Shown here: piece by piece, positions 3,701 through 13,252 of the stretch
Layout: each line of letters starts with the position of its first letter
Position numbering within the stretch: position 1 is the stretch's first letter
The notes under the pieces: model-generated
Database searches by the model: none
The model's input: the letters and a program-made list of their open reading frames with translations, nothing else
What the model was told of the DNA's origin: nothing
Program-made: the position numbers and the translations under genes
Virus record (IMG/VR): IMGVR_UViG_2579778786_000007
Reading direction: 5' to 3' (one strand)
DNA: 31,283 bases
DNA from: a virus
Taxonomy: Duplodnaviria; Heunggongvirae; Uroviricota; Caudoviricetes

Positions 3701-3927
3701 TGGCTGATGCAATGGATCTCGTACAGCAGCGCGTTGAAGAAGAACGCCAGCGCCATATCCGTGCTGCCCGTGCCAAAACACCGGGCGTGTCTCGCGTGCT
3801 TTGTATTGAATGTGAAGCGCCAATTCCGCCAGCACGCCGCCGCGCCATTCCGGGTGTGCAGCTTTGCATTACCTGTCAGGAAATCGCAGAGCTGAAAGGC
3901 AAACATTACAACGGAGGTGTTGTATGA
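3700..3927 (+). CDS. TraR/DksA-family C4 zinc-finger protein
   Basis: 75 aa with CxxC...CxxC (CIECEAP...CITCQE), typical of phage TraR-like proteins. Confidence 0.7.
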   Translation: MADAMDLVQQRVEEERQRHIRAARAKTPGVSRVLCIECEAPIPPARRRAIPGVQLCITCQEIAELKGKHYNGGVV

Positions 3928-4781
3928 GCACCATCCTGAAATGGGCGGGAAATAAAACCGCCATTATGTCCGAACTGAAAAAACATCTTCCTGCTGGCCC
4001 GCGACTGGTTGAACCTTTCGCGGGGTCCTGTGCTGTGATGATGGAGACGGATTATCCCAGCTATCTGGTTGCGGATATTAATCCTGATTTAATCAACCTC
4101 TATAAAAAGGTTGCCGCTGATTGTGAATCGTTTATATCTCGCGCCAGAGTTTTATTTGAGATCGCAAACAGGGAGGTGGCTTATTACAACATAAGGCAGG
4201 AGTTTAATTACTCAACTGAAATTACTGATTTCATGAAAGCGGTATATTTCCTGTATCTCAATCGTCACGGTTACCGTGGTTTATGTCGCTATAACAAGAG
4301 CGGGCATTTCAACATTCCCTACGGTAATTATAAAAATCCGTATTTCCCTGAAAAAGAAATTCGCGCATTTGCAGAAAAGGCCCAGCGAGCAACGTTTATC
4401 TGCGCCAGCTTTGATGAAACGCTGGCGATGTTGAAGGCGGGAGATGTGGTGTATTGCGATCCGCCGTATGACGGTACGTTTTCCGGCTATCACACTGATG
4501 GTTTCACTGAAGATGACCAGTATCACCTGGCATCCGTTCTTGAACATCGGTCATCAGAAGGACATCCGGTCATTGTTTCTAACAGTGACACATCCCTGAT
4601 CCGTTCGCTGTATCGCAATTTTACTCACCACTATATCAAGGTAAAACGCAGCATCGGTGTGGCAGCTGGCGAGGGTAAATCAGCAACAGAAATCATTGCT
4701 GTTTCCGGGCCGCGCTGCTGGATGGGATTTGATTATTCGCGTGGCGTGGATAGTTCTGCCGTGTACGGAGTACGTGCATGA
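3924..4781 (+). CDS. dam: DNA N6-adenine methyltransferase (Dam-like)
   Basis: ATG 3924 with GGAGG 6 nt upstream, overlapping the TraR stop (ATGA); N-terminal ILKWAGNK AdoMet-binding motif and catalytic DPPY (CDPPYDGTF). Confidence 0.85.
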
Positions 4782-7192
4782 GTCATGCCGATATGAACAA
4801 CTGCTGCGGCTTTAACGAGGCTGCCGCAGCGTTCTCATGGAACAGCCCGAAAAAGGCCATTAACCCTTATCTGGACCCGGCGGAAGTTGCGCCGGTTTCT
4901 ACGCTTTCAAACCTGATCACTCTGTACGCTGCCGATAACGAGCAGGAACAGTTGCGCCGCGAGGCACTGAGTGATCAGGTCTGGGAGCGTTATTTCTTTA
5001 ATGAATCACGTGATCCTGTCCAGCGCGAAATGGAGCAGGATAAGCTCATTAGCCGGGCAAAGCTGGCGCATGAGCAGCAGCGTTTTAATTCAGACATGGT
5101 CATTCTGGCGGACGTCAACGCCCAGCCTTCCCATATCAGCAAGCCGCTGATGCAACGTATTGAATACTTCAGCAGCCTGGGCAGGCCAAAGGCTTATTCC
5201 CGCTATTTACGTGAGACGATTAAGCCATGTCTGGAACGACTGGAGCATGTACGCGACAGTCAGCTATCTGCATCTTTTCGCTTTATGGCAAGCCATGAAG
5301 GGCTGGACGGCCTGCTGATCCTGCCTGAAATGAGTCAGGATCAGGTGAAACGCCTGTCCACCTTGGTAGCTGCGCATATGAGTATGTGCCTTGATGCAGC
5401 TTGTGGTGATTTGTATGCCACCGATGACGTTAAGCCAGAAGAAATCCGCAAGACATGGGAAAAGGTGGCAGCGGAAACCCTGCGTCTGGATGTCATCCCG
5501 CCTGCGTTTGAGCAACTCCGTCGGAAAAGAAACCGCCGTAAACCCGTGCCCTATGAACTCATTCCGGGTTCGCTGGCGCGTATGCTGTGCGCCGACTGGT
5601 GGTATCGGAAATTGTGGAAGATGCGTTGCGAATGGCGGGAAGAGCAGTTGCGTGCTGTCTGCCTGGTCAGCAAAAAAGCATCTCCCTATGTCAGCTATGA
5701 AGCCGTGATGCATAAACGTGAGCAGCGCCGTAAGTCACTGGAGTTTTTCCGTTCTCATGAACTGGTGAACGAAGACGGAGACGCGCTGGATATGGAAGAT
5801 GTGGTAAACGCCAGCAGCAGCAACCCGGCGCATCGTCGCAATGAGATGATGGCCTGTGTTAAAGGTCTGGAGCTTATCGCGGAAATGCGCGGTGACTGCG
5901 CCGTTTTCTACACCATTACCTGTCCGTCACGTTTCCATTCCACGCTCAATAACGGCAGACCCAACCCGACATGGACAAATGCGACGGTAAGACAAAGCAG
6001 CGATTATCTGGTCGGTACGTTTGCTGCATTTCGTAAGGCGATGCACAAAGCCGGGTTGCGCTGGTATGGCGTGCGGGTGGCTGAGCCGCATCATGACGGC
6101 ACAGTTCACTGGCACCTGTTGTGTTTCATGCGCAAAAAAGACCGCCGCGCCATTACTGCATTGTTGCGTAAGTTTGCTATCCGTGAAGACCGTGAGGAGC
6201 TGGGCAATAACACGGGGCCGCGCTTTAAGTCTGAGCTGATTAACCCGCGAAAAGGAACGCCGACAAGCTACATCGCGAAATACATCAGTAAGAACATTGA
6301 TGGGCGTGGTCTGGCTGGCGAAATCAGCAAGGAAACGGGTAAATCCCTGCGTGATAACGCTGAATACGTTAATGCCTGGGCGTCTCTGCATCGTGTTCAG
6401 CAATTTCGCTTCTTTGGTATTCCGGGGCGTCAGGCGTACCGTGAATTGCGATTGCTGGCTGGTCAGGCGGCAAGGCAACAGGGTGACAAAAAAGCAGGTG
6501 CGCCGGTACTGGATAACCCGCGCCTTGATGCCATTCTGGCTGCTGCTGATGCTGGTTGTTTTGCCACCTACATTATGAAGCAGGGCGGCGTACTGGTTCC
6601 CCGCAAATATCACCTTATCAGAACAGCTTATGAAATTAACGAAGAGCCGACCGCCTATGGCGATCACGGTATTCGTATTTATGGCATCTGGTCACCCATT
6701 GCAGAGGGCAAGATTTGTACTCATGCAGTGAAGTGGAAAATGGTTCGTAAGGCCGTTGACGTTCAGGAGGCGGCAGCCGACCAGGGCGCTTGCGCCCCTT
6801 GGACTCGTGGCAATAACTGTCCCCTTGCTGAAAATTTGAACCAACAGGAGAAAGATAAATCAGCTGATGGGGACCCCAGAACGGACTTTACCCGCATGGA
6901 TGACAAGGAGTTGCACGATTACCTGCACAGTATGAACAAAAAGGAGCGCCGGGAACTGGCTGCAAGGTTACGTCTGGTGAAACCGAAACGGCGTAGAGAC
7001 TACAAACAGCGAATTACAGACCATCAACGACAGCAGCTCGTCTATGAACTGAAATCCAGAGGATTTGATGGCAGCGAGAAAGAGGTCGATTTACTCCTTC
7101 GCGGCGGCAGTATTCCGTCAGGAGCAGGCCTGCGTATCTTCTATCGGAACCAGCGTTTGCAGGAAGATGATAAGTGGCGGAACCTGTATTAA
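4778..7192 (+). CDS. A: Replication initiation protein A (rolling-circle replication endonuclease, P2 gpA family)
   Basis: 804-aa ORF, start overlapping the dam stop; size and position match gpA of P2/186. Confidence 0.85.
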
Positions 7193-7285
7193 TTACGCTG
7201 GTTAACAATTCGTGCTCTTAATAATACCAGGCATATCAAGCTGATAAGCGTAAAAAAAACGTTTTACATCAGTAAGATTATTATA

Positions 7286-7305
7286 TACTGTAAATATAAA
7301 CAGTG
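7286..7305. promoter_or_regulatory. LexA (SOS) box taCTGtaaatataaaCAGtg
   Basis: 17 of 20 matches to TACTGTATATATATACAGTA with correct CTG-N10-CAG spacing, in an AT-rich promoter-like region about 40 bp upstream of the orf62/DinI-like operon. Confidence 0.6.
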
Positions 7306-7346
7306 GTTATACATACAGTATTTCTTGTGGTGTCATAGGAGGAAAG

Positions 7347-7535
7347 ATGCAGGACTATTTTTTGGAGTCTTTGAAGCTCCAGCGCATTGATTTTTTTCTT
7401 AAGCTTGTAGCGGCTAGTGAGTGTAGTGATGAAGAGAAGGGGCTGGCTCTGCAGTGGGTTTCTGAATTGACTGATGAACTCATGGCAAAAATCAGAAGCC
7501 ACGAATACAACCGCTCAATGGATGTCATCAGCTGA
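7347..7535 (+). CDS. Small hypothetical protein (62 aa), first ORF of the putative SOS operon; possibly the N-terminal part of a split Tum-like gene
   Basis: Strong RBS AGGAGG 6 nt before the ATG; downstream frame overlaps the upstream-open frame of the DinI-like gene (7471-7535). Confidence 0.45.
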   Translation: MQDYFLESLKLQRIDFFLKLVAASECSDEEKGLALQWVSELTDELMAKIRSHEYNRSMDVIS

Positions 7536-7545
7536 GGTGACTTTT

Positions 7546-7779
7546 ATGCGCATTGAAATAATGATCGATAAAGAGCAGAAGATTAGCCAGTCTACCCTGG
7601 ACGCCCTTGAATCCGAGCTTTACCGCAATCTGCGCCCCCTGTATCCCAAAACGGTAATCCGTATCCGTAAAGGTAGCTCTAACGGTGTGGAACTGACCGG
7701 ACTGCAACTGGACGAAGAAAGAAAACAAGTGATGAAAATTATGCAGAAGGTGTGGGAAGACGACAGCTGGCTGCATTGA
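7546..7779 (+). CDS. DinI-family protein (phage 186 Tum antirepressor-like)
   Basis: 77 aa; MRIEI...DALESEL...WEDDSW aligns with E. coli DinI (MRIEV...DALAGEL...WESADDW); GAGGTG RBS; location after A matches the 186 SOS operon. Confidence 0.75.
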   Translation: MRIEIMIDKEQKISQSTLDALESELYRNLRPLYPKTVIRIRKGSSNGVELTGLQLDEERKQVMKIMQKVWEDDSWLH

Positions 7780-7892
7780 TTTTGTCAATAGACGCTTGTT
7801 TTTACTAATCAAAAAGGGTTACATATGAGTGAGAGGCGATGTCAATCGGATATCGCCTTGTTTTTTGTCAAGAAAAGAATAATAGGCTAAAA

Positions 7893-8570
7893 ATGAAAAT
7901 TAATAATGTAGCGTTACCAATATCTCTTGCTGTAATCCTAACTGGTTGCGTGCCACATGCTTCTAACCGAAATATCACTGCTATTGAAGTGGTGAAGCCT
8001 GCTATTGGGCAAAGTGCTACCGCCTACATGGGCGATCCCATTATCACATCTGCTACTGGATTTAAAACGGACGTACTAGAACTTGGTGCGGCTAATGGTG
8101 CATTGTCTTCTATCGCTGCTGGTACATATTGCAGTGAGGGGAATGGAATTTACCGCAATTATCATAACCCTCAAGCTGTTGCGTTAAAAAATCTCTATGG
8201 GCAAATCGGTAACTATGTTGATTATGTTAGTTACGATGCTGCAAAAAATGAGATATCACCGCCAAATGGTACTTCTTATACTGCATCAGAAATTTCTATC
8301 AAACGTGTTCCTGATGGGCTGTGTCGAGTTAGTAACTCATTGGTTAAGACTATCGAATACAATGGAAATGCAGGCGGTGTAATGAAGTTCACCTATCGTG
8401 AATTTGCAAACGATATGGCTCGTGCAGCATTTACAACAGATTTTTCTGTAGATTCTAAGGGAAGTGACGTTATCGCTTACAAAGGTGCCAAGTTCAAAGT
8501 GAACAAGGCTGATAACTCGTCTATTTCTTATACAATTATTTCTGGCTTTGACAAGGCTGTCACGTTCTAG
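7893..8570 (+). CDS. Predicted outer-membrane lipoprotein, unknown function (cargo gene)
   Basis: Signal peptide with lipobox (AVILTG|C) and no Asp at +2; AT-rich relative to the phage backbone; no recognisable catalytic motif. Confidence 0.6.
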   Translation: MKINNVALPISLAVILTGCVPHASNRNITAIEVVKPAIGQSATAYMGDPIITSATGFKTDVLELGAANGALSSIAAGTYCSEGNGIYRNYHNPQAVALKNLYGQIGNYVDYVSYDAAKNEISPPNGTSYTASEISIKRVPDGLCRVSNSLVKTIEYNGNAGGVMKFTYREFANDMARAAFTTDFSVDSKGSDVIAYKGAKFKVNKADNSSISYTIISGFDKAVTF

Positions 8571-8674
8571 TTTTCACGCTTACTGAGTATGTTACGATTT
8601 TGCACATTCTGCATAAGCGCGCATGTCTATGCTGCATGAGATCGCATGATCGTTTGAGGATCTTTTGTGTTAAG

Positions 8675-8698
8675 GCCCGCCAGTTCTGGCGGGCTTTT
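8675..8698 (+). terminator. Rho-independent terminator candidate (GC-rich hairpin plus T-tract)
   Basis: gcccgcc-agttct-ggcgggc followed by TTTT, about 105 bp downstream of the lipoprotein gene. Confidence 0.5.
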
Positions 8699-8743
8699 GC
8701 GTAGATCATGCAGGTGCATGAAAACCACTACATAAAGCGGGCA

Positions 8744-8762
8744 GGCGTGGCGGGGATACGAG
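8744..8762. other. cos-like sequence (candidate cohesive-end site)
   Basis: GGCGTGGCGGGGATACGAG shares its first 13 nt with the 186/P2 cohesive end as I recall it (GGCG(T/A)GGCGGGGAAAGCA); positionally consistent with cos lying between the right-end accessory genes and Q. Confidence 0.3.
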
Positions 8763-8829
8763 CGCGCGCAACGGGTTGTCATTCAAACTCCAATGCTATA
8801 AAACTGTGTAATACAAACAACTAAAGTAG

Positions 8830-10584
8830 GTGGCCTCAGTGGAACTGCAAGCAAATGCTCGAACCTTAACAAACGTGTTATCTGTAAATAAAAAATATAT
8901 AGTCCCTAGATTCCAAAGAGAATATTCTTGGGGGAAGGAACAAGTAAGTGAACTTTGGCATGATATAGTTTCCAATATTCATTACCAGGAGGATGGGCAG
9001 TATCAATATGATGAGTATTTCATCGGTGCTCTCGTTTTGGTCGGGCAGGAAACTAGCTCTGAGCTGATGATTGTAGATGGTCAACAACGTCTTACGACTC
9101 TTACTATATTGTTATCAGCATTATGTGATAAATTTAAGTTGATAAATGAGTTGGCTGTAGCTCAATCAATATATAATAATTATATATCTGGTATGGATGA
9201 CGATGGCAGACCTTTTTTTAAATTAGTTAATGAAACTCCTAAGCCATACTTTCAAAACAACATTCAGCATATTGATAAGAGAAATGAAGGACCGGAGTCC
9301 CTTGAAGAAAGAAACTTGCAATCTTCATATAATGATTTAACTGAGTATCTTTCAGAAGATAATCTTTGCCAGACATTAGGAGTAGATAGAGAGAAATTTA
9401 TCTACTTGGAAGCGTTGAAGGCTGTGCGGGATCAAGTTCTACGGTATCTGAAAGTGATTTATATTACAGTTAATGATGAAGATGAAGCTTATACAATCTT
9501 TGAAACTCTGAATGCTAGGGGATTAAACTTAAGTTATGTAGATCTTATAAAAAACAAATTATTTAAGAAACTGAATGGCACACATCCTGATGATGATGCA
9601 AAAACTAAATGGAATAAAATTAGGCAAATAATTGCTAGTCGTAATGGTGTCGGTTCTATCGAAACATTTATCCGTCATTGGTGGGTGTCAAAATATTCTT
9701 ATGTAAGTAGTGACACTCTTTATAAAGCTTTTCTGGATAAGTGGAAAAAAGGCGACATTGATGCTTCAGCGTTCATTGATGAGCTACTTTCAGATGCCGA
9801 GATATATGTGAAAATATCATCGCCTACAGAACAGGATTTTCCTGAACTGGAAATGAAACCAGTTTATCGAGGTTTGCAGGCATTAAGGCTGTTTAACATA
9901 TCTCAGAATAAACCATTTTTGTTATCTTTATTTAAGGCAAGAGCAAGAGGAACGCTAAAACTTGTTGATATGAATAATGCAGTGCTGTCAATTGAACGCT
10001 TTCATTTTATGTTTAATGCTATTTGTTCATTGCGACCATCAGGTATTGAAAGTGCGTATGCTAAAGCTGCTAGGGCTTTAGTGGATGAAGGTTCTACTAA
10101 AGCTAGTAATAGACAAGTAATAAAGTCTTTGCTTGAAATGTTGGTGAAGAGAAAACCAGACATTAATATGTTTGTTGAAAAGTTTGTTATGCTTAAATTT
10201 TCAAATCAAGAGTTGAAAAATAAAAGGTTGATTCAGTACATTTTTAATAGACTTGAGTTACATCACATGAAAACGGGGGAGTATATGCCTGATTCATTAA
10301 CATTAGAGCATATTCAGCCTCAGAGTGTGGGGGATTCTGAAGTATATAGCATGATAGGAAATTTATTACCACTTTCAAAAGAATTAAATGAAAAAGCTGG
10401 AAATAAGTCTGTTGTGGATAAGCTTGAAATTTATAAACAATCACAATATGCGCTAGTTAAAATTTTTATTGATGAATTTGAAAATAAATATCAAGGAGAA
10501 TGGACGCCCGATCATATGAGGTCAAGAGCTGCTGAACTAAGTATTTTATCGTATAATTCAGTATGGAAATTGGGGCGTGAGTAA
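8830..10584 (+). CDS. DUF262/DUF1524 two-domain nuclease, GmrSD-like (candidate type IV restriction / anti-phage defence protein)
   Basis: 584 aa. N-terminal DUF262/ParB-like motifs (PRFQREYSW; DGQQR at 9076-9090; FETLNARG); C-terminal DUF1524/His-Me-finger-like motifs (TLEHIQPQ about 10306-10320; GNLLPLSKELNEKAGNKS). Strongly AT-rich; GTG start. Confidence 0.75.
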   Translation: MASVELQANARTLTNVLSVNKKYIVPRFQREYSWGKEQVSELWHDIVSNIHYQEDGQYQYDEYFIGALVLVGQETSSELMIVDGQQRLTTLTILLSALCDKFKLINELAVAQSIYNNYISGMDDDGRPFFKLVNETPKPYFQNNIQHIDKRNEGPESLEERNLQSSYNDLTEYLSEDNLCQTLGVDREKFIYLEALKAVRDQVLRYLKVIYITVNDEDEAYTIFETLNARGLNLSYVDLIKNKLFKKLNGTHPDDDAKTKWNKIRQIIASRNGVGSIETFIRHWWVSKYSYVSSDTLYKAFLDKWKKGDIDASAFIDELLSDAEIYVKISSPTEQDFPELEMKPVYRGLQALRLFNISQNKPFLLSLFKARARGTLKLVDMNNAVLSIERFHFMFNAICSLRPSGIESAYAKAARALVDEGSTKASNRQVIKSLLEMLVKRKPDINMFVEKFVMLKFSNQELKNKRLIQYIFNRLELHHMKTGEYMPDSLTLEHIQPQSVGDSEVYSMIGNLLPLSKELNEKAGNKSVVDKLEIYKQSQYALVKIFIDEFENKYQGEWTPDHMRSRAAELSILSYNSVWKLGRE

Positions 10585-10610
10585 ATGCCGGGGGGGGCCC
10601 AGCATATTTA

Positions 10611-11657
10611 TCAAAAAGAATCGTTTGTGAAATTTAGGGAGTAGGCATCAAAGCGTATTGCTTCTTCGCCTAGCCAATAGTTAAGTTCTTGTAGCTGTTT
10701 CTGCAGGGGCATCAGTTCGTTGCGGACAAAAACACGACTAGCCTTCTCCACATCACCAAAGCCCCCAACATTATTAGGCATTATCCCCATCATTTGCGGC
10801 GGCACACGGTGTGCCGCCATCATGTCGTCCCGGCTCACGTTCTTGATATTCAGAAACTCATCCTTCGCCGCGACTTCTGACAACGGGATAATCTGAAGCC
10901 CGTCCTTTTTGCCGTTAGGAGAGTACATAAACAGGTTGCGGAAGTTGCCTGGCCCTTTGGCACTTTTCATTGCATTGCGGAGGTTGTTCACATCCTCCTG
11001 GTTCTGCGCGGCATCGGTCATGTACATGATGAAGCCTGCATGACTGCCGTTAATATAATACTTCCGGCGGAACAGCGTGGCGGACTCGTTGAGCAGGGCT
11101 GATGGAATGGCAGAAAGATAACCTGGCAGGCCGTAGATCTCCTGGTTGATGTCCGGTTCCATCAGATGAAAAATGCTGCCTTTCGTGAACTGATACGGCT
11201 GGGTTGTCATACCGTATTGCACAAACCAGTAGGTATCCAGGTCTAACCCGCGTCGGGTGTATTTTGCCAGAGCAGGCTCAAGGGCGATAACTTCACCGAA
11301 GCGGTTCGTGCGTTTCTCCAGGTAGGCGTTACCAAATACCAGATAGTCCTGCACAAAACGTGAAAAAGCCTGCTGGCTGAGCAGCGGGTGAGGGATGTAG
11401 GTACTGGTCAGAATGTTGCATTTCACCGCAATTGGTGAGCTGTGATGCACGGCGGCGCGGAAGGTTCGTGCCAGTCCGTCAAAGCTGACGGGCGGCTCAT
11501 ACCAGCGGTCCATCTGTACGCATTCCACATAGTCCAGCAGTTCTCGGCGGTCCAGAACAGGAACGGGATCGCCGAAGCTGAATGCTTCGGCTGTAGTCTG
11601 GCTTTTAAGCTGGATCTGTTTCGTCGCCGCAGCGCGGTTCTTCTTACTCTTTCCCAT
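10611..11657 (-). CDS. Q: Portal protein (P2 gpQ family)
   Basis: About 348 aa, minus strand, start ATG overlapping the P stop (TGATG); size and position match P2 Q. Confidence 0.9.
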   Translation of the reverse strand: MGKSKKNRAAATKQIQLKSQTTAEAFSFGDPVPVLDRRELLDYVECVQMDRWYEPPVSFDGLARTFRAAVHHSSPIAVKCNILTSTYIPHPLLSQQAFSRFVQDYLVFGNAYLEKRTNRFGEVIALEPALAKYTRRGLDLDTYWFVQYGMTTQPYQFTKGSIFHLMEPDINQEIYGLPGYLSAIPSALLNESATLFRRKYYINGSHAGFIMYMTDAAQNQEDVNNLRNAMKSAKGPGNFRNLFMYSPNGKKDGLQIIPLSEVAAKDEFLNIKNVSRDDMMAAHRVPPQMMGIMPNNVGGFGDVEKASRVFVRNELMPLQKQLQELNYWLGEEAIRFDAYSLNFTNDSF

Positions 11658-13252
11658 CAAAAAATCTCCACAATATTGCTGGTATTGGCGGATTCGCCCT
11701 GCAGCGGTTCGTTAAACAATGCGTGCATCGTTGCCCAGGCCAGATCGGCGTGGCTGGCTTCTTCGCTGCGGCTGGCTTCATAGGTCGGGCGGTTGCCGCT
11801 GGCGGTGGTTGCGCGACGGATTGCCATGAATGACTGCGCAATGTCGGTGTGTCCGGCGTCAAACTCCAGACGGCGGTGGCTGATAATGTCGTAGGCCTTG
11901 AGTACCAGAGCGTTTTTAACGTTGGGGTTGTAGACAAACTCCCGGACGGCTGGAAAAAACGCTTTCACGTTCTCGTAAACCCCGTGGCCGACACCTGTCG
12001 AGTCGATGCCGATGTAGGTCACGTTGTACTGCTCGGTCAGTTTTTTGATGGCGTCAGCCTGGGCGCGGAAGTCCATCCCGCGCCACTGGTGACGCTCAAG
12101 AATGCGGAACTTACCACCCGGCACGGCTGGCGGTGCCACCACCACGCATCCGGCACTGTCGCCGTTCTGCGTACCTTTTGCCGGGTCATAACCGATCCAC
12201 ACTTCGCGCCAGCCAAACGGGCGCAGGGCCAGTGCATGAAAGTCGGTCCAGACTTCCCAACTGTCCACCATGCACGCTTGCAGCTCGCTGAGCGGGAACA
12301 CGGACGCGAGATCGTCCACAAACTCACACATCAGCAGGTTCTGGTATTCGTCCGGGCTGTACTCCATGCGCAACTGGTCGAGGTCGAACAGGTTACAGCC
12401 GCCCCGCACCGCATCTTCCACGGTGACTATCTGGCGGTACTGCCCGTCTGCGCACAGCAGGCCGGGGGACAGATTGCTGTGGGACAGGTCGATGTCCACC
12501 TTATCGGCTTTGTTGCGCCCTCGGTTGAACAGCGCACCGGACCAGAACGGATAAGCACTGTGTGTCAGACTGGATGGTGTGGAAAAATAGGTCTGTCGCC
12601 ATTTTTTGTGAATAGCCATACCGGAAGCCACTTTGCGCAGCTCCTGGAATTTCGGTATCCAGAAATATTCATCCAGATACAGGTTGCCGTGGTAACTCTG
12701 GGCCGTGCGGGCATTGGTGCCGAGGAAGTAAAGCGTGGCCCCGTTAGGAAGCACCATCGGATCACCTTTCAGCTCCACCTCGACTTCTTTGGCGAAATCG
12801 ATGATGTACTGCTTAAAGACGTGAGCCTGTGCCTTACTGGCAGAAAGGAAAATCTGGTTACGTCCGGTAAGCAGGGCGTCAATCAGGGCTTCACGGGCAA
12901 AATAGAAGGTCGCGCCGATCTGGCGTGACTTTAGCAGGTTGCGGATGCGGTTGGTTTTTCCGGCTTCCCACCAGTGGCGCTGGTAGTTGAACATGGAGGA
13001 ATGGAAAATTTCTTCCAGCTTCTCAATCTGTTCATCGGTGAAAACATTCTTTTCAGGCTGACGGCGCGGGCCTTTGTTGCGGTTGGCGACGTTAGGGTTT
13101 AAGTCGGCTTCGTTGCCGCCATTGTTAAACTTGCCGATCCGCGCGTGGCGCTCAGACTGGCGCGCCAGCAGGTCAATCTCTTTGAAATCTTTCCCTTCTT
13201 TGTGCTCCTTCATAATGAGCTGGCAGTAGCGTGCGGCGGTGGTGAGCTGCAT
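11657..13252 (-). CDS. P: Terminase ATPase (large) subunit, P2 gpP family - the 531 codons downstream of an in-frame TGA
   Basis: Long minus-strand ORF divergent from O, with conserved terminase blocks; P2 gpP is about 590 aa, so the N-terminus is missing from this ORF. Confidence 0.85.
   Translation of the reverse strand: MQLTTAARYCQLIMKEHKEGKDFKEIDLLARQSERHARIGKFNNGGNEADLNPNVANRNKGPRRQPEKNVFTDEQIEKLEEIFHSSMFNYQRHWWEAGKTNRIRNLLKSRQIGATFYFAREALIDALLTGRNQIFLSASKAQAHVFKQYIIDFAKEVEVELKGDPMVLPNGATLYFLGTNARTAQSYHGNLYLDEYFWIPKFQELRKVASGMAIHKKWRQTYFSTPSSLTHSAYPFWSGALFNRGRNKADKVDIDLSHSNLSPGLLCADGQYRQIVTVEDAVRGGCNLFDLDQLRMEYSPDEYQNLLMCEFVDDLASVFPLSELQACMVDSWEVWTDFHALALRPFGWREVWIGYDPAKGTQNGDSAGCVVVAPPAVPGGKFRILERHQWRGMDFRAQADAIKKLTEQYNVTYIGIDSTGVGHGVYENVKAFFPAVREFVYNPNVKNALVLKAYDIISHRRLEFDAGHTDIAQSFMAIRRATTASGNRPTYEASRSEEASHADLAWATMHALFNEPLQGESANTSNIVEIF

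Follow-up and report, generated by a model that had tools for sequence, protein, structure and literature searches.

A divergent HEC-06-family, GmrSD-like nuclease gene as probable antiphage cargo between cos and the portal gene of a P2-family prophage

Analysis of a 31,283-nucleotide stretch of Caudoviricetes DNA (IMG/VR record IMGVR_UViG_2579778786_000007; hereafter the window) allowed us to examine a single AT-rich gene lying between the cos site and the portal gene Q of a P2-family prophage. Sequence comparison puts the product in the HEC-06 family, as a divergent member, and it is very probably a stand-alone GmrSD-like antiphage nuclease. The reading as a whole, in which a stand-alone antiphage enzyme of the HEC-06 family is carried as cos-Q cargo and acts in a modification-dependent manner, we consider likely. 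We read the gene as a stand-alone defence because of its domains, its match to the HEC-06 family, its invariant catalytic residues, the lack of a conserved partner gene, the selection acting on it and the slot that it occupies. A first-pass annotation of the window had already taken the gene for a prophage-borne defence nuclease, and both the full-length HEC-06 match and the published status of the hotspot support that view. Table 1 lists the features of the locus.

Table 1. Features in and around the cos-Q interval of the window. Positions are nucleotides of the window unless marked aa (581-aa numbering).
Feature	Position	Strand	Basis or remark
Replication gene A	4778-7192		Phage_GPA, 1e-127
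Intrinsic terminator, hairpin plus U-run	8674..8698	+	-22.3 kcal/mol, z -4.46; inside conserved cos block
cos cohesive-end sequence, GGCGTGGCGGGGATACGAG	8744..8762	.	In register, with flanks, on annotated P2 cosL/cosR and 186 cos
Exchangeable cos-Q cargo module	8772..10740	+	Promoter, gene, hairpin and diverged 3' end of Q; breakpoints versus E. coli HS and L010
Candidate extended -10, TGcTATAAA	8794..8802	+	Putative; TGcTATAGA in lambdoid copy, surrounding bases diverged
Ribosome-binding site, AGGTGG	8828..8833	+	5 nt 5' of GTG 8839
CDS, GmrSD-like / HEC-06-family protein	8839..10584	+	581 aa plus stop; 100% identical to P0001 (581 aa)
N-terminal DUF262 / GmrSD_N (ParB-like NTPase) domain	8872..9564	+	Pfam PF03235, E 1e-38, 133.9 bits
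PRFQREYSW	aa 23-31, 8905-8931	+	Motif scan
DGQQR (D80-R84)	aa 80-84, 9076..9090	+	Invariant in 44 homologues; equivalent Q and R of HEC-06 essential for defence
FETLNARG	aa 221-228, 9499-9522	+	Motif scan
C-terminal DUF1524 / GmrSD_C His-Me-finger nuclease domain	10198..10539	+	Pfam PF07510, E 1.2e-11, 45.2 bits
Nuclease motif, TLEHIQPQ ... GNLLPLSKELNEKAGNKS	10300..10410	+	E490, H491, N508 and N517 invariant; E471/H472 of HEC-06 align here and are essential
TLEHIQPQ	aa 488-495, 10300-10323	+	Motif scan
GNLLPLSKELNEKAGNKS	aa 507-524, 10357-10410	+	Motif scan
GC-rich hairpin in 26-nt gap between convergent gene and Q	10585..10605	.	Minus strand z -2.04; plus strand z -0.33
Portal gene Q	10611-11660	minus	ORF list, Pfam

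The two domains proposed in the first-pass annotation both pass their Pfam gathering cut-offs, GmrSD_N over residues 15-245 (cut-off 33.2 bits) and GmrSD_C over residues 457-570 (cut-off 23 bits), with scores well above what chance would give, so the absence of DUF262/DUF1524 matches that would have spoken against its proposal is not what we observe. All five motifs that it quoted occur in the protein. In an alignment of 44 sequences, the invariant positions include R24, F25, Q26, R27, Y29, S30, W31 and D80 to R84, together with F221, E222, L224 to G228 and the four nuclease residues listed in Table 1. The (D/E)H...N...N motif of DUF1524, a feature of the GmrSD-like superfamily, is present on a beta-beta-alpha core, which the AF2 model builds from strands 488-491 and 509-512 and a helix at 514-520. 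The overall fold likewise resembles that of solved members of the superfamily; the model is of low confidence near the NTPase pocket, over residues 1-23 and 206-231.

Searches with the PADLOC models place the protein in a named family. The best matches, all at full length, are to three HEC-06 models (E 3.8e-90, 1.7e-87 and 4.4e-84), followed by models named 'Orf5'. The first of these, PDLC04154, aligns residues 1-581 with positions 1-566 of a 569-position profile, and PDLC04157 and PDLC04155 likewise fall below 1e-83; matches were judged by E-value and coverage and not by the PADLOC inclusion thresholds. On PDLC04154 the experimentally tested HEC-06 protein scores 733 bits and the window protein 301 bits, and on the 'Orf5' model they score 582 and 258 bits, the ranking of the models being alike for both. 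Since tested HEC-06 itself scores that highly on the 'Orf5' model, the two names denote one family. A search of NCBIfam with the protein returned no match.

HEC-06 is a validated single-gene GmrSD-like defence (Payne et al., bioRxiv 10.1101/2024.01.29.577857; tested protein WP_096851903.1). It is protective by itself in E. coli K-12 and blocks T4. The substitutions Q79A and R80A in DGQQR, and E471A and H472A in EHICP, abolish defence (10.1101/2024.01.29.577857). We took the accession of the tested protein from Table S2 of Payne et al. and used the full-length copy present in E. coli S3 (locus L012). BLASTP of the window protein against it gives 26% identity (E 2e-35), collinear from end to end, and the pairwise alignment sets DGQQR on DGQQR and TLEHIQP on TLEHICP, so that the residues essential in HEC-06 are conserved. 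Both proteins are encoded by single genes, have a DUF262-linker-DUF1524 layout of about 560-580 aa, and share the motifs YIVPRFQR(E/D)Y, DGQQR, FETLNARG and TLEHI.P. Both also come from E. coli prophages and have about 34% GC, the tested HEC-06 allele residing in a Rac-like prophage. They differ in where they were met: HEC-06 was first found inside Hma systems, whereas the window protein occupies the cos-Q slot of a P2-family prophage. In view of the 26% identity, and of 301 against 733 bits on the same model, the window protein forms a branch separate from HEC-06.

The family is large and is maintained by selection. In a search of 5.8 billion proteins, 2494 relatives were found at E<=1e-10; among the matches listed, every one has the two domains and a length of about 575-581 aa. 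An E. coli cluster holds 100 members at least 90% identical to the window protein, with a representative (P0001) that is 100% identical. Among the matches listed, relatives in Enterobacter, Klebsiella and Serratia are 75-89% identical, and many cyanobacterial ones 52-56%. No close relative is present in the INPHARED phage collection, where tblastn gives at best 27% identity, in Listeria phages. By the Nei-Gojobori method, the Klebsiella allele gives pN 0.08 against pS 0.75 (saturated), and an allele of 55% identity gives pN 0.29 against pS 0.745. With pN far below pS in both comparisons, strong purifying selection is indicated.

The open reading frame given in the first-pass annotation (8830..10584, plus strand, 584 aa, GTG start) is present exactly so in the ORF list. 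Translation, however, almost certainly starts 9 nt further 3', at another in-frame GTG (8839); the GTG at 8830 would be an alternative start that is probably unused. We moved the start because three lines of evidence agree, namely the ribosome-binding site, the 581-aa length assigned by RefSeq/PGAP to the identical protein in E. coli MB51 (WP_000422658.1), and the ATG starts of the homologues at L006 and L010, which come from two other contexts and line up with 8839 in the alignment.

The AT-richness that had been remarked on is real, with 34.7% GC across 8772-10610 versus 55.5% across the structural genes on the right side (10611-31283), but its use as a sign of recent acquisition does not stand. 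Every allele has 33-35% GC, and the cyanobacterial relative 29%. Because the alleles keep to 33-35% although their synonymous sites are saturated, we reject base composition as evidence of a recent arrival; a low GC content is a lasting property of this gene family. Recent spread of the window allele is better supported by the identity of at least 99.8% among six E. coli genomes whose neighbouring cargo differs.

Gene order and domains assign the window to the 186/Fels-2 type within the P2 family. Its genes run from an integrase, cut by the window edge, through CI, CII, DUF5347, TraR/DksA, Dam methylase and gpA to the hotspot, and on through gpQ and gpP to the tail fibre, tape measure and gpD. 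The first-pass annotation correctly put the gene between A and Q; its likening of the site to that of old/tin does not hold, as cos separates the gene from A. In P2, old/tin lie between A and cos and point leftward, whereas the window gene lies between cos and Q and points rightward, and the protein families are unrelated. What old/tin and other hotspot cargo share with the window gene is their character as variable, AT-rich, non-essential defence cargo near cos. A search with the P2 cos 19-mer, allowing up to 3 mismatches, found no match in the window, and cos was placed via the annotated ends of P2 and 186. The distance from cos to the gene, on its right, is 77 nt, which puts the gene at the very left edge of the packaged genome. 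The cos-Q interval of P2 and 186 measures 170-190 bp and contains no genes, only the tQ/tW terminator.

A generic promoter scan listed no promoter upstream of the gene, and its counts equalled the shuffled expectation. The candidate extended -10 element is a consensus-level call, and its conservation in the lambdoid copy suggests that it may be the promoter of the gene; a -35-like TTGTCA stands 5' of it at 8776-8781, and transcription would then be expected to start at about 8808-8812. The intrinsic terminator lies in a cos block (8560-8771) for which Fels-2 and Klebsiella phages show about 98% conservation, and would end A-side transcription just before cos and insulate the defence gene. Past the stop codon, the hairpin is likely a terminator common to the gene and Q that works better on the minus strand: the plus-strand hairpin does no better than shuffled sequences, and the minus strand is marginal (z about -2.0). 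Homologues have other hairpins at the same position. Searches of the window found no Rfam family and no tRNA, and no direct or inverted repeats, as a sign of transposition, were found flanking the cargo.

That the gpA-gpQ interval is a known site of P2 defence genes, as the first-pass annotation held, agrees with the literature: the interval is the cos-adjacent hotspot defined by Rousset et al. 2022 (PMC9122126). Table S5A of that paper enters WP_000422658 as 'DUF262/DUF1524', and one of its arrangement examples reads 'hypothetical + DinI + hypothetical + DUF262/DUF1524'; the protein lies outside the set of systems tested there. WP_000422658 is absent from the main text of any paper that we found. 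A 2026 NAR study of P2/P4 defences reports that hotspot cargo is swapped rapidly and exchanged with other mobile elements, and its main text makes no mention of GmrSD, HEC or type IV. With old/tin on the A side of cos and the window gene on its Q side, we regard the latter as occupying a separate sub-slot of the hotspot.

Comparing the locus across P2-like prophages, as had been suggested, showed that the cos-Q slot carries alternative cargo in relatives. E. coli HS has an unrelated 463-aa protein there, and three phages have cargo in the same orientation: a 565-aa hypothetical protein in Fels-2, a reverse-transcriptase pair in Klebsiella phage 4LV2017 and an AIPR protein in Salmonella phage RE-2010. 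In a further E. coli P2-like prophage, the slot is filled by a family allele of 55% identity. The gene itself is found in 6 of the 5,426 complete E. coli genomes, each time at least 99.8% identical and adjoining the portal gene, while the A-side cargo varies among the six. The window is a mosaic: over 4701-8771 it matches the prophage of E. coli HS at 100% identity, and from 8621 on it matches the MB51 prophage at 98.7%; because these tracts overlap at 8621-8771, the crossover is placed in the conserved cos block. An A-side module spans 7778-8620 and a Q-side module runs from 8772 to about 10740, identity to E. coli HS stopping at 8771 and restarting at 10741, and identity to L010 restarting at 10697. 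The conserved cos block is the crossover point between two cargo modules, and the Q-side sub-slot is distinct from the old/tin side.

Elsewhere the family is found in other surroundings. In Klebsiella lambdoid prophages, an allele of 86% identity has the replication genes on one side and the nin genes on the other. A cyanobacterium carries a relative of 54% identity in its chromosome as a solitary gene, with a Fic/MazE pair next to it. No partner gene common to the P2-like, lambdoid and cyanobacterial chromosomal contexts was found. As no partner recurs in all four kinds of context, and the A-side cargo differs among the six E. coli genomes, the gene probably acts alone.

Among characterized enzymes, GmrSD (E. 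coli CT596) and BrxU (PDB 7P9K) have the same two Pfam domains as the window protein, the domains being named for GmrSD. The likeness extends to a single polypeptide, a prophage- or island-borne gene and, likely, the same attack on hypermodified phage DNA. Sequence relatedness to GmrSD/BrxU proper over both domains was not found: the PADLOC type IV model mREase_IV matches residues 9-246 only, the PADLOC SspE model is also confined to the N-terminal domain, and BrxU gave no match at E<=1 in a PDB sequence search with the window protein. The nearest solved structures and PDB sequences are instead DndI (9JFL) and SspE (6JIV/7DRI), to which structure-based sequence identity is only 14-18%, and BrxU is the fourth-best structural match. 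The proximity to DndI and SspE and the N-terminal reach of mREase_IV, together with the 26% identity to tested HEC-06, count against the main reading. So do the low confidence of the AF2 model near the NTPase pocket and the consensus-level basis of the promoter call, which the promoter scan did not list. It is from its relatives that we would extend the label 'type IV, modification-dependent' to the window protein.

A mechanism can be proposed on this basis. The lysogen would express the gene from its own extended -10 promoter, with the upstream terminator shielding it from neighbouring cargo. The protein is probably a homodimer, as are BrxU, SspE and DndI. Its N-terminal ParB-like DUF262 domain would bind and hydrolyse NTP, in keeping with the need for DGQQR in HEC-06, and would place the His-Me nuclease under NTP-dependent control. 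The C-terminal DUF1524 His-Me finger (E490, H491, N508, N517), whose EH pair is essential in HEC-06, would then nick or cleave incoming phage DNA. Self and non-self would most probably be told apart by modification, with hypermodified-cytosine DNA (T-even hmC and glucosyl-hmC) attacked and unmodified host and prophage DNA spared. For the window protein, modification dependence is most probable by analogy with HEC-06 and HEC-06_Bact, the latter restricting T-even phages but not the unmodified-cytosine mutant T4-GT7.

There are other possible explanations for the gene. The protein could be a GmrSD-like defence nuclease with a trigger other than hydroxymethyl- or glucosyl-cytosine, and a target range unlike that of its T-even-restricting relatives; we think this unlikely. 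The trigger could be a different modification of phage DNA, with 7-deazaguanines and modified adenines or thymines as examples, or else some feature of the structure or replication of the invading DNA. The identity to tested HEC-06 is low, BrxU ranks only fourth among the structural matches, and the defence profiles of HEC-06 and BrxU differ (Payne et al., 10.1101/2024.01.29.577857). The family is also wide, and includes cyanobacteria, where T-even-like hmC phages are not an obvious threat. Moreover, as the closest solved structures of the family are phosphorothioate sensors, the specificity of this branch should not be assumed. Nothing points to any specific alternative trigger, however, and HEC-06 and HEC-06_Bact, at 22% identity to each other, both act on T-even phages, one of them in a modification-dependent manner. 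The structural proximity to DndI and SspE raises a further alternative, that the protein is the effector half of a mark-and-sense system in which phosphorothioate marks self and unmarked DNA is nicked. Both DndI and SspE read the phosphorothioate mark of the host and act on DNA that lacks it, which reverses type IV logic, and they need dnd or ssp modification genes, which the window gene does not have as neighbours and which would have to be located elsewhere in the host. No dndBCDE or sspBCD genes were found in the window or in loci L001, L002 and L006-L011, and dnd/ssp neighbours are absent from the P2-like, lambdoid and cyanobacterial contexts examined. The phosphorothioate-sensing tyrosine (Y25 in DndI, Y30 in SspE; P.YQR.YSW) is replaced by F25 in the window protein, a phenylalanine that is invariant in its family and is present in HEC-06 too. 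Because DndI harms cells without the mark and SspE is inactive in them, a phage-borne orphan of this type would be toxic or useless in most hosts, and HEC-06 is autonomous in E. coli K-12. We consider this alternative improbable.

The gene might also have no part in defence, being a passenger, a nuclease of the prophage's own (acting, for example, on host or competitor DNA in lytic growth) or a silenced AT-rich insert. Horizontally acquired AT-rich genes are often silenced in E. coli, and the gene is rare among complete E. coli genomes. Yet it is under strong purifying selection with invariant catalytic residues, does not belong to the conserved genes of P2, is replaced at its slot in relatives by recognised defence genes, has related proteins validated as defences and belongs to a cluster of 100 close members with an identical representative, all of which makes a role outside defence very improbable.

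With the family validated, the hotspot published and a PADLOC label of HEC-06 in place, the gene is ordinary in kind and is already known as an object, since the exact protein stands in Table S5A of PMC9122126 and is recognised by PADLOC. Its value is as a clean, well-delimited case of a prophage with a single-gene nuclease defence. A lysogen would probably be resistant to modified-DNA phages, much as Tin of P2 blocks T-even phages, and if T-even phages are restricted the window protein would be a functional analogue of Tin. This bears on host range in phage therapy and on strain-level differences in phage sensitivity. Modest additions to previous knowledge are the sub-slot on the Q side of cos, the phosphorothioate sensors as structural neighbours and the footprint of a transfer from a P2-like to a lambdoid phage.

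That footprint was observed in the Klebsiella lambdoid locus L006, where positions 6839-8916 match window positions 8674-10745 at 76% nucleotide identity, reaching past the gene on both sides. Upstream, the similarity takes in a P2-type terminator and cos block with the cos-like sequence GGCGTGGCGGGGGTATGTG, the cos relic lying at about 6880-6940 of L006. Downstream, it takes in a fragment of the portal gene that an in-frame stop codon interrupts, GGFGDIKKVSLVLVRNKLMTLQKRLQELNNWLGE*ATRFEKYTL, aligned with the C-terminus of Q in the window. We read this similarity as the footprint of a whole cos-gene-Q' module moving from a P2-like to a lambdoid phage. It also enters a joint reading that we find quite doubtful, in which a branch nearer to DndI/SspE than to type IV would have a new recognition logic or target range (another modification or a non-modification cue), and the Klebsiella lambdoid module would be the direct footprint of cargo departing from the P2 hotspot by illegitimate recombination, perhaps leaving a functional P2-type cos in an unrelated phage. 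Illegitimate recombination was proposed, and not documented, in the 2026 NAR study, and the L006 footprint fits that proposal.

The window is a recombinant of two types of prophage sequence, one represented by E. coli HS and the other by MB51, an E. coli strain that carries an identical defence protein. The HS prophage is 100% identical to the window up to 8771, and the MB51 prophage matches it at 98.7% identity from 8621 onward. Because one identity ends at 8771 and the other starts at 8621, the conserved cos block between these positions is the crossover point of two independently exchangeable cargo modules, one lying towards gpA (the A side) and the other towards the portal gene (the Q side). 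The combination of an HS-type A side with an MB51-type Q side is absent from the complete E. coli genomes of our collection.

Other prophages carry alternative cargo in the slot between cos and Q (see table). The proteins found here in E. coli HS and Fels-2 are both uncharacterised, and we regard them as defence candidates. The cargo gene on the A side is common to the window, Fels-2 and E. coli HS. Its product matches phrog_1353, gives no match in Pfam or PADLOC, and is predicted to be a lipoprotein (MKINNVALPISLAVILTGC, lipobox LTGC), which might act at the cell surface or in superinfection exclusion. Further upstream, directly 5′ of gpA, a Dam-type methyltransferase gene forms part of the backbone conserved among related prophages and has no obvious connection with the defence gene.

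Coordinates of cargo modules, genes and protein segments in the window and in related loci
Feature	Sequence	Position	Strand	Remarks
D12-class N6-adenine (Dam-type) DNA methyltransferase gene	window	3864-4781	+	Pfam 3.4e-76
A-side cargo module	window	7778-8620
A-side cargo gene	window	7893-8570	+	225-aa predicted lipoprotein; longer ORF begins 7839
Q-side cargo module	window	8772 to about 10740
Lowest-confidence segment, aa 1-23	window	8839-8907
Lowest-confidence segment, aa 206-231	window	9454-9531
P2-type module in Klebsiella lambdoid prophage	L006 (also L007-L009)	6839-8916		counterpart: window 8674-10745
cos-Q cargo, E. coli HS	L002	7657-9048		463-aa protein, phrog_34659
cos-Q cargo, Fels-2	L013	3779-5476		565-aa hypothetical protein
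cos-Q cargo, Klebsiella phage 4LV2017	L014	3786-5769		hypothetical protein and reverse transcriptase pair
cos-Q cargo, Salmonella phage RE-2010	L015	3825-5489		AIPR protein
Tested HEC-06 allele, E. coli S3	L012	6001-7683

An allele of the defence gene with 86% identity is found in Klebsiella lambdoid prophages, where it is accompanied by P2-type relics. On its 5′ side lies a P2-type terminator and cos block (GGCGTGGCGGGGGTATGTG), and on its 3′ side a C-terminal piece of the portal gene Q, interrupted by an in-frame stop. The presence of such relics on both flanks indicates transfer of the entire cos-gene-Q′ module from a P2-like to a lambdoid phage. The index of the contig collection lists the protein in 262 blocks, so modules arranged in this way may be frequent.

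Among the matches listed, relatives with 52-56% identity (P0038-P0116 and L011) are abundant in filamentous cyanobacteria, including Nostoc, Anabaena, Leptolyngbya, Calothrix and Moorena. This connects the cargo of enterobacterial prophages unusually closely with chromosomal genes of cyanobacteria, and suggests that the clade has spread widely by horizontal transfer.

In the AlphaFold model of the defence protein, two segments have the lowest confidence (pLDDT below 50), and the most conserved DUF262 motifs, PRFQREYSW and FETLNARG, lie partly inside or adjoining them. The NTP pocket may become ordered only in a dimer or with ligand, similar to what is reported for BrxU, SspE and DndI.

The experimentally tested HEC-06 allele is present in 30 complete E. 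coli genomes, as counted by 100% identity over a 399-nt query fragment. In E. coli S3 it lies within a Rac-like lambdoid prophage, with recET, kilR and sieB as neighbours; Hma systems are not its sole setting. The PADLOC sets ‘HEC-06’ and ‘Orf5’ (PDLC04154-04157, PDLC02686-02702) overlap, with the tested protein scoring 733 bits on one of the HEC-06 models and 582 bits on one of the Orf5 models.
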